DNA of 64,000 bases from a virus (Duplodnaviria; Heunggongvirae; Uroviricota; Caudoviricetes), in the IMG/VR virus record IMGVR_UViG_3300021255_000114, positions 295,942-359,941 of that record. One strand, given 5' to 3'. Below, piece by piece: positions 1,626 through 17,036 of this stretch (position 1 is its first letter; every line of letters begins with the position of its first letter). A program made the position numbers and the translations under genes. Below the pieces are notes generated by a model that did not search any database, had not been told where the DNA came from, and saw nothing but the letters and a program-made list of their open reading frames with translations.

Positions 1626-1641
1626 TGTTTCACGTGAAACA
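1626..1641. other. parS: parS centromere-like site, perfect TGTTTCACGTGAAACA (copy 1)
   Basis: Exact match to the canonical ParB/Spo0J parS palindrome; intergenic; extends to an 18-bp palindrome at 1625-1642. Confidence 0.85.
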
Positions 1642-1662
1642 TTTGGTGTATATGTTTTCCGT

Positions 1663-1713
1663 TTCAACATCGGTAAGATAACAATTTTTTCTGAACCGAC
1701 CAAATTTTTAACA
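1663..1713 (-). promoter_or_regulatory. TATCTTAC-class promoter-like element with no ORF of its own (1 of 8)
   Basis: Same geometry as the early cassette but core T(T/G)GTTATCTTAC-N3-TGTTGAA. Other copies: 4478-4528(+), 6975-7025(-), 8792-8842(+), 11500-11550(-), 13320-13370(-), 14432-14482(+), 15264-15314(-). Confidence 0.75.
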
Positions 1714-1716
1714 AAT

Positions 1717-1747
1717 AAAAAACCGTCCAACCAAAGGCCAGACGGTT
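1717..1747 (-). terminator. Intrinsic terminator
   Basis: Minus strand AACCGTCTGGCC-TTT-GGTTGGACGGTT followed by TTTT. Confidence 0.8.
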
Positions 1748-1880
1748 CACAACAATAAGTACAATCGATAAGAGCATACTAAATCAATTTAAACACAATA
1801 AACAAACATAGAGATTAAGGATAAGATTGTTAAACATATCCGCATACTCTGTGTAACGGTTAATCCCGTTGAAAGTATAT

Positions 1881-2165
1881 CTAATCAGTTTGTTTATCAT
1901 AGGTGCGTTCCACATATTCTTCACAATTATTACATTCCATTTGACAAATGTCTCGGTGAAACTTGTAGCAATGCCCGTCCCTTGAAGAGAAAATACAATC
2001 TGTACCATATTGCGGAATTGGTATGTCGAGCAGTATTTTGTCACATTCGTTGAGATAATTCCCATTTCGATGTTCCAACATTGCAAGAAAATGGATGCAG
2101 TGCCTTTTGTCCTTACAGTCAAGCCGATTGCAAAGGCTCGTTGTTTCACCAAATCGTTTGTTCAT
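1881..2165 (-). CDS. Hypothetical Cys-rich protein
   Basis: 94-aa ORF; upstream AGTATATTT promoter-like motif at 2189-2197. Confidence 0.7.
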   Translation of the reverse strand: MNKRFGETTSLCNRLDCKDKRHCIHFLAMLEHRNGNYLNECDKILLDIPIPQYGTDCIFSSRDGHCYKFHRDICQMECNNCEEYVERTYDKQTD

Positions 2166-2228
2166 TATTTGTTCTCGCTTTATATATTAAATATACTCCA
2201 AAAGTGAAAATTTTTACAAGCAGGAAAC

Positions 2229-2262
2229 AAAAAAAAACCGCCACAATTTTTTTGCAGCGGTT
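2229..2262 (-). terminator. Intrinsic terminator
   Basis: AACCGC...GCGGTT stem with a long U tract on minus. Confidence 0.7.
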
Positions 2263-2313
2263 ATAGAGTGTTTGCGTTTTTATATTTTTGTTGTATCTGC
2301 GCTTATGGACTGT

Positions 2314-2646
2314 TTACAACACCTTTGCAACGACCCAATCAAGCAAATCAAAGTAATCAATGTTGCACTCATCGTGCACAAGGTCCACATTTTCCGCGTC
2401 CTCACCAAGATAATAGGCGTGCAGGTCAGCATAAACGTATAGACCCCTTGCCCAAAGTTTGGTAACGTAGCAGTCAGCCAAATCACCCTCGAAGTGAGTT
2501 GATGCAATGCTCGGTGCACCGACATTTTCCCAATCGAACTCAACCGGCCCGTGTTCGCCCAGCAGTTTGCATAATTCAAGCCGTGCTTTGGATTGAAGTT
2601 CATAACCGTCTTTGATAATTTTCTTGTATTCCTCTTTGGTTTTCAT
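2314..2646 (-). CDS. Hypothetical early protein
   Basis: 110-aa ORF, co-oriented with the array. Confidence 0.8.
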   Translation of the reverse strand: MKTKEEYKKIIKDGYELQSKARLELCKLLGEHGPVEFDWENVGAPSIASTHFEGDLADCYVTKLWARGLYVYADLHAYYLGEDAENVDLVHDECNIDYFDLLDWVVAKVL

Positions 2647-2667
2647 AATATACTTTTTTTAAAAAGA

Positions 2668-2913
2668 TTATTTAGCCCACTTATTGTATTCCTCTTCCTC
2701 AACATAGATTGGGAACGTGTAGTAGTTTAAAAAGCAGTCCTCACCATAGTTGATGTCTTGGCAAAAATCGTCAAGGGTGTAGATGTCGGCAGTGCCTTTT
2801 TCAACCCCGTCTTTTGCAAGACCATAGCGGACATCGTCACTCGAACATTCGAGCGTATCAAGGTCGTAGTCCTCGCAGTCCACGTAGAAACATAAAACAA
2901 GTGCTTTTTTCAT
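2668..2913 (-). CDS. Hypothetical early protein (likely start MKKALV at 2913)
   Basis: The track start at 2973 lies inside the promoter cassette; the ATG at 2913 follows the cassette. Confidence 0.75.
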   Translation of the reverse strand: MKKALVLCFYVDCEDYDLDTLECSSDDVRYGLAKDGVEKGTADIYTLDDFCQDINYGEDCFLNYYTFPIYVEEEEYNKWAK

Positions 2914-3023
2914 AATGTTATCTCTTTTATTGTTCAACGATGCAAAGATACTTAAAAATTTTTGATTGGGCAATTTTTTAACATTTGCAGTGATGGCAAG
3001 TTAGATTACCAACAGATACTTCC

Positions 3024-14560: not shown

Positions 14561-14598
14561 GTAAGTTATAAGTTAGAGTGAATTAACAAATTTCCTTT

Positions 14599-15129
14599 TT
14601 ATTCTCCAATTACCCTTGCCCCCAAGACAATCTTGATGACGTTTTGCAGTTTCGGGCGGATGATTTTCACTTCCTCTCGCCCACTCAATCCTGCATTGTT
14701 CTGCTTTTCGCACTCTTTTCTCTCGTACTCAAAACCCTTTATTTCGTTCTCCTCCTCTTTCGTTGCCAATCGTCCGTCTACCATATAGTAACGCTCAACG
14801 TGGCTTTCCTCACTTCTGTCAAAGATGATGTTGAGGTAGAATTGGTTTTCGTCCTTGTCGCTCTGCATAAAGAAATCGTTGTAGCGGTGCATTCCCTTTG
14901 CCTTCTCAACTTCATAGCCACCCTCAATGCCGAGTTTCTCCATACGGTTCTCAACCGTCCGTTTGTAGTCAGTGCCTAATGCAATATGCGTATAGTTTGC
15001 AACCTTGCGGACACGACCCAGATAAGGGTTGTTGGTTTTACGCATACGCGGTTCAGTGAAGGTGACAACTTGGACACCGAACACGCCTTTTTTCATTTCG
15101 CTGATGGTTGTAATTGCATCGTTATTCAT
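14599..15129 (-). CDS. Hypothetical phage protein
   Basis: 176-aa ORF after promoter 15166-15216. Confidence 0.85.
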   Translation of the reverse strand: MNNDAITTISEMKKGVFGVQVVTFTEPRMRKTNNPYLGRVRKVANYTHIALGTDYKRTVENRMEKLGIEGGYEVEKAKGMHRYNDFFMQSDKDENQFYLNIIFDRSEESHVERYYMVDGRLATKEEENEIKGFEYERKECEKQNNAGLSGREEVKIIRPKLQNVIKIVLGARVIGE

Positions 15130-15402
15130 TTTCGTATATGTTTAATTGGTTAGTATCTCTCTTAATTCAACACTGCAAAGATACCTAATATATCTGACAT
15201 AGCCCAATTTTTAACATTTATTAACATTTAAAAAACGGGCATACTCCACCTATTCCATCCCCTTTCAACAAGGGTAAGATAACCAATTTTTCCCACACCG
15301 CCAATTTTTTAACACTTTTTAACATTCGCGTTAAACTATGTTAAATTGTTTCGGTTTCCGTATCTTTTTATTATCTTCATATCGTTGAACAAATACAATA
15401 CT

Positions 15403-15834
15403 ATGAGCAAACGCAGCGAACAATATAAAGAGAATAAAGCAGCCAAAGTAGGGGCAGAATTGGCTTGCCCTGTATGCGGTTCCCGTTTTGCGAAAAAACA
15501 GTGGCAACAAGCGTTTTGTTGCAGTCACTGCAAAAACACATATTGGAATGCCAAAGGCGACAGACACAAAGACCCGAACTATCAACGCAAATACAACCAA
15601 AAACACCCCGAACGCTATGAGAGGCTTTTGGGATTAGGTTTCACCGCAGCAGAGAGGGAACACAATAGGGCATTATATGAATTGGCAACAAACCCCGATT
15701 TCAGAAACTATGTGAACGACCCAAGTTGGGACGGGAGTTGGGACGAACACGCTTGTACCGTATCGCTTGAAGACCAATTGGACGCATACGAAGGCAACTA
15801 TGGTGACGACCCTGACTTTGACAGAGAATGGTAA
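15403..15834 (+). CDS. Zn-finger protein (CPVC...FCCSHC), likely start at 15403
   Basis: The track start at 15346 is inside the promoter cassette; CxxC..FCxxxC motif. Confidence 0.8.
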   Translation: MSKRSEQYKENKAAKVGAELACPVCGSRFAKKQWQQAFCCSHCKNTYWNAKGDRHKDPNYQRKYNQKHPERYERLLGLGFTAAEREHNRALYELATNPDFRNYVNDPSWDGSWDEHACTVSLEDQLDAYEGNYGDDPDFDREW

Positions 15835-15911
15835 ACAAATGTTAAAAAATTGCCCAGTTTAGAATAATTACTTATCTTTGTATTGTTGAAATCAAATAAA
15901 CAAGGTTAATT

Positions 15912-16124
15912 ATGGCACCGACAAAAGTAGAACGAAAAGCAAACCGATACGCAAACGAACAAACCAAAAACGCCAAAGATATGCTCTCAAACGCATATAT
16001 GGCGGGTTATTGCAAAGCACTCAAAGACATTCAAGCCGTAATGGGAAAAACGGCAACAAATGACGTTTCTGTGCTTATGGGGAGAATTTTGGCCTTTATT
16101 GAGGAACAAAAAACCAATTCTTGA
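15912..16124 (+). CDS. Hypothetical early protein
   Basis: 70-aa ORF after promoter 15840-15890. Confidence 0.75.
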   Translation: MAPTKVERKANRYANEQTKNAKDMLSNAYMAGYCKALKDIQAVMGKTATNDVSVLMGRILAFIEEQKTNS

Positions 16125-16199
16125 CAAGTGTTAAAAACTTGCCTAATCCAATACAATTACGTATCTTTGTAATGTTGAACAAATAAAAACGAGAACATT

Positions 16200-16445
16200 A
16201 TGAATACATACAAATTTGCAGCGTTGATGATCCCTTACGATGAACCGAACAACGTTATGGTCACCGATATTGCACAGACAAAAGAAGAATGCCTGAAAAA
16301 GCGAAACAAGCAAGTTGAAACACACATTTTCTTGGAAGGACTTGACACCGCTGACGCGGAACGCCTTAGAAAACAATACAACGAAATAAGCGTTTGGGAC
16401 CCGATTTATAATATTGACTTTCGCGTCTCCGAAATAGGAAAATGA
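16200..16445 (+). CDS. Hypothetical early protein
   Basis: 81-aa ORF after promoter 16129-16179. Confidence 0.75.
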   Translation: MNTYKFAALMIPYDEPNNVMVTDIAQTKEECLKKRNKQVETHIFLEGLDTADAERLRKQYNEISVWDPIYNIDFRVSEIGK

Positions 16446-16464
16446 ACACCAAAACATATACGAT

Positions 16465-16632
16465 ATGGCAAAAGAATTGGTACAGATAGAGTTCAAGTAT
16501 AATAAAATCCCTGCATCAGACCTTATTTCTGAACATACAACCAAACTAATAAGTTTCGGCATAAAGGCAAACGACCCCATTGAAACACACGTCAAAACAT
16601 ACAATATCCGTATAAGTATGTTGATTTATTGA
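16465..16632 (+). CDS. Small hypothetical protein (55 aa, MAKELVQIEFKYNK...)
   Basis: Hand translation; fills the gap before the next cassette. Confidence 0.55.
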   Translation: MAKELVQIEFKYNKIPASDLISEHTTKLISFGIKANDPIETHVKTYNIRISMLIY

Positions 16633-16726
16633 ATTGCAATGCGGAACGAAAACTAATTGTGTTAAAAACTTGCCTAATCCAATACAATTACGTATCTTTG
16701 TAATGTTGAAATGAAATACCAATGAT

Positions 16727-17014
16727 ATGCAATACGAAATCATCTCAATAGGATTAGGCGGAAACGGTCAAGCATTGTTGACGCTTGAAGCCGAAAACAA
16801 GTATGACGCACTGAACCGATACGCGGAAATCAAAGGTTTGGCACTGAACACCGCCCCCGATGAGCGTTGGTTTGAACTGCGCCACAGTTATGCGGCAGCA
16901 CCCCTCGGAACGGCTGAAAAGGCTAAAAAACAAGCTCAAGCGTTTGCCGAAGGTTTGAAGGTGTATGTGCCGAAAAACACACACGAACTCCATATCCTCA
17001 CAGGAGTGCGTTAA
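16727..17014 (+). CDS. Hypothetical early protein
   Basis: 95-aa ORF after promoter 16660-16710. Confidence 0.75.
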   Translation: MQYEIISIGLGGNGQALLTLEAENKYDALNRYAEIKGLALNTAPDERWFELRHSYAAAPLGTAEKAKKQAQAFAEGLKVYVPKNTHELHILTGVR

Positions 17015-17020
17015 ACAGAT

Positions 17021-17036
17021 TGTTTCACGTGAAACA
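17021..17036. other. parS: parS centromere-like site, perfect TGTTTCACGTGAAACA (copy 3)
   Basis: Exact canonical parS, 7 nt after the last early gene and adjacent to the skew-switch region. Confidence 0.85.

Follow-up and report, generated by a model that had tools for sequence, protein, structure and literature searches.

Perfect parS sites in the early region of a ParB-less T4-like jumbo phage: probable loading sites for host ParB

The genome of the virulent Bacillus phage phi29 has five parS sites, and its segregation into the prespore has been linked to the host ParB protein Spo0J (PMC2731898, citing Meijer et al. 2005, EMBO J 24:3647). Here we describe five perfect copies of the chromosomal parS 16-mer TGTTTCACGTGAAACA in a T4-like jumbo phage genome of 372,793 bp with direct terminal repeats (IMG/VR record IMGVR_UViG_3300021255_000114); three of them lie in a stretch of 64,000 nucleotides (positions 295,942 to 359,941 of the record), referred to below as the window. 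To our knowledge, phi29 is the only phage for which the exploitation of host parS has been documented experimentally. The original prediction, made from the window alone, knew of no description of such an ori-proximal layout in lytic T4-like phages; the five host-type parS of phi29 and their use via Spo0J (PMC2731898) provide a precedent.

Like phi29 and Nf, the present phage is of virulent type and combines several host-type parS sites with the absence of a phage ParB, which is the hallmark of a phi29-type hijack. In phi29 the binder is host Spo0J, and in both Bacillus phages host-factor sites also stand near early promoters. For phi29, a protein-primed podophage with a 19-kb genome that infects a spore former, the documented benefit is the entrapment of the genome in the prespore. 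The present phage, in contrast, is a 373-kb T4-like phage, presumably of the non-sporulating Bacteroidales, all its sites are perfect and fall within 29 kb, and three of them are built into promoter modules. Bacteroidales do not sporulate, so any benefit to the phage must be other than spore entry.

Three further systems can be compared. Chromosomal ParABS centromeres share the identical 16 bp, the clustering within tens of kb and the position of one site at a GC-skew switch; they differ in that parAB is encoded on the same replicon, which here is a phage genome without these genes, and in their partner SMC-ScpAB, which appears to be absent from Bacteroidales (six-genome search below; PMC10197239). 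The cassettes of phage-plasmids (P1 parABS, N15 sopABC and the parABS of extrachromosomal mycobacteriophages; PMC7157519) are similar insofar as centromere-like sites on a phage could secure inheritance without integration, but they comprise their own ParA/ParB and private centromeres (PMC7157519), whereas the present phage has neither gene and its sites are those of the host. Finally, promoter silencing by ParB or KorB (P. aeruginosa parS3/parS4, 10.1101/151340) offers the parallel that a promoter-adjacent ParB site could repress; there, a replicon's own ParB acts on the genes of that replicon, whereas the phage would borrow the protein of its host.

Number, clustering and conservation of the parS sites

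Scanning of the window recovered TGTTTCACGTGAAACA at exactly the three originally reported positions, and allowing up to three mismatches added no further site:

1626..1641, no strand: parS 16-mer (genome 297567), between the tandem early promoters P1 and P2
6941..6956, no strand: parS 16-mer (genome 302882), between the tandem early promoters P1 and P2
17021..17036, no strand: parS 16-mer (genome 312962), at the edge of a 320-bp non-coding region

None of 100 shuffles of the window yielded three matches. The full-genome scan that had been suggested as a check adds two more copies, giving five perfect sites at genome 283,737; 294,719; 297,567; 302,882 and 312,962, with just one additional site at up to two mismatches. 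All five fit in 29 kb, with 3-11 kb between neighbours, at the promoter-proximal end of an extended block in which the genes are small and lie mostly on the minus strand. A second-order Markov model of the whole genome predicts 0.0004 copies, and the probability of five random points landing inside 29 kb of 373 kb is about 2e-4. Apart from TGTTTCACGTGAAACA, no perfect palindrome of 12, 14 or 16 nt is present in more than two copies genome-wide. Each of the five copies, including the three in the window, matches the 16-bp palindromic parS consensus TGTTNCACGTGAAACA, reportedly due to Livny et al. 2007, in 16 of 16 positions.

G129, the nearest relative recovered, is a 236-kb fragment; its terminase is 71% identical to that of the phage, and it uses the same early promoter type. 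It bears two perfect parS sites 431 bp apart, located by ORF-level BLAST between orthologues of the two genes on either side of the site at genome 283,737. These orthologues are just 29% and 62% identical in protein, so that parS has kept its position while the neighbouring proteins drifted. A second record, G134, has the same pair and probably represents the same phage type as G129. Scans of metagenomes and IMG/VR with the 183-aa neighbour of site 283737 returned G129, G134 and one identical 4.6-kb contig only, which leaves a single independent lineage of relatives as the basis for conservation. A contig of a divergent strain (about 93% identical) covers 1614-3287; among the differences listed, none falls in 1626-1641. 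Contig joints between parS sites (e.g. 1644 to 6939) were considered as deletions and rejected, with 20 matching letters on one side; the contigs bearing them are DNA of other organisms, and the common part is just the parS 16-20-mer.

ParB of the host and the absence of a phage ParB

The phage encodes a Gp23-type capsid protein, portal and terminase of T4 type, and further a helicase, an NAD-dependent ligase and a Lon-like protease. The T4-type portal gene (window 45772-49017, 1081 aa) is split by an intein that contains an HNH endonuclease domain. Comparison of the window with GenBank phages by BLAST gave no match in either near or distant mode, and a scan of genome contigs with the phage ligase revealed no bacterial relative. 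The phage was detected in gut metagenomes of goats, sheep and cattle sampled in about ten studies. Bacteroidota promoters are of the type -33 TTTG / -7 TAnnTTTG, and because the early promoters of the phage are of this type and the phage occurs in ruminant-gut metagenomes, we infer a host among ruminant-gut Bacteroidales.

No match to the ParB_N or HTH_ParB families was obtained across the whole phage genome, and hidden Markov models (HMMs) of ParA and ParB from five Bacteroidales, run against all six phage frames with filters off, gave a best E of 0.66. The lack of parA and parB, first noted for the window, thus extends to the entire genome in both the family search and the HMM search, and a self-encoded ParABS cassette, with parA and parB on the same replicon, is not present.

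Bacteroidales genomes were collected by a 16S probe pattern and then confirmed by record titles. A parA-parB operon is found in all five complete genomes inspected (Segatella, Prevotella, Bacteroides, Parabacteroides, Paludibacter). The helix-turn-helix of the five ParB proteins keeps the motifs GK(S/K)R and GH(A/C)R, which correspond to R173 and G201, residues that are invariant in ParB and specify parS (Jalal et al., PMC7383237). Each of the five genomes holds 1-3 sites within one mismatch of the 16-mer, and in four of them the sites adjoin mnmG/gidA, apt and uvrC at a conserved place. In Prevotella, Segatella, Paludibacter and Parabacteroides, parS stands between mnmG/gidA and apt or uvrC, 0.6-2.8 Mb from parAB. 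Such chromosomes are unlike the classical arrangement, in which parS adjoins parB. At least one site within one mismatch is present in 61 of 121 Bacteroidales genomes vs 4 of 121 with a reversed control. A chromosome usually has 1-3 and at most five such sites, and the five perfect sites of the phage, in 0.37 Mb, equal the count of the richest sampled chromosome within one mismatch. The same consensus is reported for gut bacteria, including Bacteroides caecimuris, with parS clusters at the origin (PMC10197239). The earlier identification of the 16-mer as canonical chromosomal parS is thus borne out by the same sequence beside mnmG/gidA in the inferred host order, and the two checks proposed along with it, of the host parS consensus and for a phage ParB, returned a matching parS and no ParB, respectively.

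Host ParB is the best candidate binder because the sites are non-random, identical to the Bacteroidales centromere and unaccompanied by a phage ParB. We consider it probable, from the sequence evidence, that the five 16-mers are loading sites for host chromosomal ParB. After entry of the phage DNA into a Bacteroidales cell, dimers of the host's ParB would bind parS, close as CTP clamps and slide outward. Given the spacing of 3-11 kb between sites, a single ParB-coated domain would be expected to cover the promoter-proximal 30-40 kb of the early region, judging from ParB behaviour in model organisms. The original prediction had host SMC recruited together with ParB, and this part is doubtful: SMC_hinge was detected in none of six Bacteroidales genomes nor in a B. 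thetaiotaomicron control, in a search of imperfect sensitivity that also left a Caulobacter control unmatched, which agrees with the statement that no condensin is known in Bacteroidetes (PMC10197239).

As to the purpose, the proposal we rank first, and hold tentatively, is that the unintegrated genome is hitched to host ParA/ParB and placed and inherited like the chromosome origin during delayed lysis. Such delayed lysis would be a carrier state or pseudolysogeny, the non-sporulating counterpart of the Spo0J-parS prespore entry of phi29. Ranked second, ParB at the three module sites could block or gate read-through from P1 and so modulate early transcription. ParB titration as a means of host takeover is ranked third.

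Early-promoter modules and the third site of the window

Three of the parS sites (genome 294,719; window 1626; window 6941) share one slot in a repeated intergenic module. The order on the minus strand is terminator hairpin, P1, short hairpin, a variable spacer of 12-15 nt, parS, a TGTTAA-rich element, P2 and an ORF. P1 belongs to the TATCTTAC class and P2 to the TATCTTTG type, and the early promoter is very uniform (GTTAAAAATTTG, 20 nt, TATCTTTG). Because the promoters are of Bacteroidota type, the block is presumably transcribed by the host RNA polymerase in unmodified form, hence early. Sites 1626 and 6941 stand between P1 and P2, as had been described in terms of a sequence element and an early promoter. 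The features of the two modules in the window are:

1673..1712, minus strand: P1 of the first module (GTTAAAAATTTG, 20 nt, TATCTTAC); parS at about +23 to +38
1659..1673, minus strand: short hairpin right after the P1 -7 box, stem CCG/CGG with TGTTGAAA loop, from the alignment of seven P1 copies
1573..1612, minus strand: P2 of the first module (TATCTTTG -7 box), driving the 179-aa ORF
1018..1557, minus strand: 179-aa ORF of no recognised family, expressed from the parS-bearing module
6985..7024, minus strand: P1 of the second module (TATCTTAC class)
6875..6914, minus strand: P2 of the second module; parS centre about 78 nt upstream of the inferred start
6613..6846, minus strand: 77-aa ORF of no recognised family, from the second parS module

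In an alignment of the three modules the 16-mer is identical in 16 of 16 positions while the 110-bp flanks are just 57-74% identical, and the 12-15 nt directly upstream of parS are wholly different. The remaining two parS copies stand in unrelated contexts outside promoter modules.

This placement bears on the rival that survives best, namely that the sites are mainly early-promoter control elements at which host ParB is co-opted as repressor or roadblock, with positioning irrelevant. KorB on RK2 would be the repressor analogue. In favour of it, three of the five sites occupy a fixed slot, about +23 to +38 from the inferred P1 start and with the parS centre 65-78 nt upstream of the inferred P2 start (about 65 nt at window 1626), and ParB-dependent repression of parS-adjacent promoters is documented in P. 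aeruginosa (parS3/parS4, 10.1101/151340). The distance from parS to P2, however, differs by 13 nt between modules, so no fixed helical phase is kept; two equivalent tandem modules work without parS; two sites lie outside promoter modules (genome 283737, and window 17021 right after a stop codon); and the syntenically kept site of the relative is likewise outside any module. On balance, we regard promoter control as the main role as unlikely.

TATCTTAC P1 promoters occur in seven copies (window 1659-1712 and 6971-7024; genome 287238, 294765, 309271, 310374 and 311215), each followed by a hairpin in which the loop is constant and of TGTTGAAA type while the stem co-varies (CCG/CGG or CCC/GGG). 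Two copies have a terminator-like hairpin soon after the short one; small RNAs are therefore possible, and the TATCTTAC promoter copies may make them. Contigs of a gut metatranscriptome, probably of the source sample, match window 4602-5025, 5420-5685, 7374-7529, 7662-7815 and 8996-9223 without mismatch. These RNA contigs, which cannot reveal starts or strands, hint at expression of the early genes in vivo, with DNA carry-over possible.

The third site of the window begins 7 nt past the final stop-codon base of a plus-strand ORF and borders a non-coding region:

16727..17014, plus strand: 95-aa early-type ORF ending just ahead of the third parS
17037..17355, no strand: non-coding region of about 320 bp, with direct repeats (C-rich and CGGCGACGT) and inverted repeats of TTCCGGAA type

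Cumulative GC skew reaches a local minimum at window 17,118, 82 bp to the right of this parS, and coincides with a switch of coding strand; the global skew extremes are elsewhere. The non-coding region contains two CGGCGACGT-A-tract repeats 49 bp apart. TTCCGGAA-like motifs also adjoin parS at genome 283737 and the parS sites of the relative. A box scan detected no cluster of DnaA boxes near any parS site. For the putative origin first proposed here there are the local skew minimum, coincident with the strand switch, and the repeats next to parS, but no DnaA-box cluster, and 17037-17355 is only a candidate for a regulatory or origin region. The other site outside the modules, at genome 283,737, comes after a small palindrome at a gene's end and lies 1.2 kb from an iteron-like repeat array (repeats seen in part). 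The global maximum of cumulative GC skew, at genome 222,711, also marks a coding-strand switch, and a tyrosine recombinase remnant and a TnpB-like ORF are found almost exactly there (genome 222.7-224.3 kb).

Recurrence, remaining alternatives and meaning

The perfect 16-mer is present in at least 119 stretches of IMG/VR. Among 30 parS-bearing records, mostly multi-site or large, only two have a ParB_N domain. Multi-site records of 12-18 kb, some with inverted terminal repeats, encode a protein-primed PolB and are thus phi29-like. Two unrelated phages, both without a ParB_N domain, are especially rich: G165 (IMGVR_UViG_3300045988_175595, 245 kb, G+C about 24% over the part read) carries five perfect parS in 7.7 kb, and G166 (IMGVR_UViG_3300028840_005080, 87 kb) has four in two pairs. 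The pattern of parS followed by GTTAAAA occurs in many unrelated contigs, none of which has the early-promoter consensus of the phage.

A second alternative holds that the sites are decoys, with replicating phage genomes titrating host ParB and upsetting chromosome segregation, ParA-linked replication control or division. The number of sites suits it, as the five perfect copies equal the maximum within-one-mismatch count among the 121 Bacteroidales chromosomes and would be multiplied by phage replication. A decoy would, however, require neither clustering in 29 kb nor conserved positions, and loss of ParB is usually mild in model bacteria (a textbook view, shared by the abstract on P. aeruginosa); we consider this explanation improbable. 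Least convincing, and in our judgement very improbable, is that the 16-mer is an operator for a phage DNA-binding protein unrelated to ParB, its identity to parS being coincidence or mimicry: the placement in the modules is operator-like and the many small early ORFs of no recognised family could include DNA binders, but no candidate binder was identified, agreement with the universal parS consensus in 16/16 positions would very rarely arise by chance (1 in 65,536 even for a given 8-nt half-site), and the same perfect sequence recurs in unrelated ParB-less phages, with host Spo0J as binder in phi29.

Several observations weigh against the loading of host ParB. The position between two promoters is operator-like and suits a transcription factor equally well, and two of the five tandem P1-P2 modules (genome 309.2 and 311.2 kb) have no parS and unrelated spacers. 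On the presence of the sites in close relatives, whose absence there the original prediction had named as a refutation, the evidence is divided: G129 keeps its two syntenic sites, while no parS occurs within the stretch of its early-promoter region examined, despite the same promoter type, and three more distant relatives (fragments, 24-53% complete; about 40% identity in a neighbouring 582-aa protein) show no site within two mismatches. Conservation of parS, as judged from these sequences, is real but patchy. The host assignment is inferred, and phage and host are both uncultured. The genome also gives no sign of a non-lytic lifestyle: its only integrase-like match was rejected as a lysogeny module, being an 81-aa C-terminal remnant of a tyrosine recombinase beside a TnpB gene. 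The neighbouring 427-aa ORF resembles an IS200/IS605-type TnpB by appearance rather than by family search. Finally, T4-like phages often modify their DNA, Mom-like and methylase proteins are encoded by the phage, and such modification could impair recognition by ParB. Two large paralogues (window 57795-59492 and 60443-62095) have zinc-finger and REase_MTES_1575-like segments, one of them also a Mom-like segment; PHROGs labels them homing or HNH endonucleases, and they may bear on DNA modification.

The use of host parS by a phage is a known principle from phi29; the T4-like, promoter-wired form proposed here for a probable Bacteroidales phage would be new. Taken together with the present genome, the other ParB-less phages with parS clusters would point to a recurrent and largely undescribed phage strategy. 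More speculatively, and with rather low confidence, borrowing of host ParB might have evolved convergently as a general strategy among large phages of lytic type, T4-like jumbo phages of gut and rumen included, and might afford plasmid-like, heritable and transcriptionally gated persistence without lysogeny genes. In the present phage, with its sites wired into tandem early promoters, ParB occupancy would then decide between early firing and quiescent co-segregation with the host origin. If loading of host ParB is true, a T4-like jumbo phage that infects one of the dominant bacterial orders of rumen and gut has a handle on the positioning of its host's chromosome. This could explain how lytic-type phages persist in dividing Bacteroidales, in carrier states, without integrases, and a mechanism known only from phi29 and sporulation would then apply also to hosts that form no spores and to genomes of 20 times the size.

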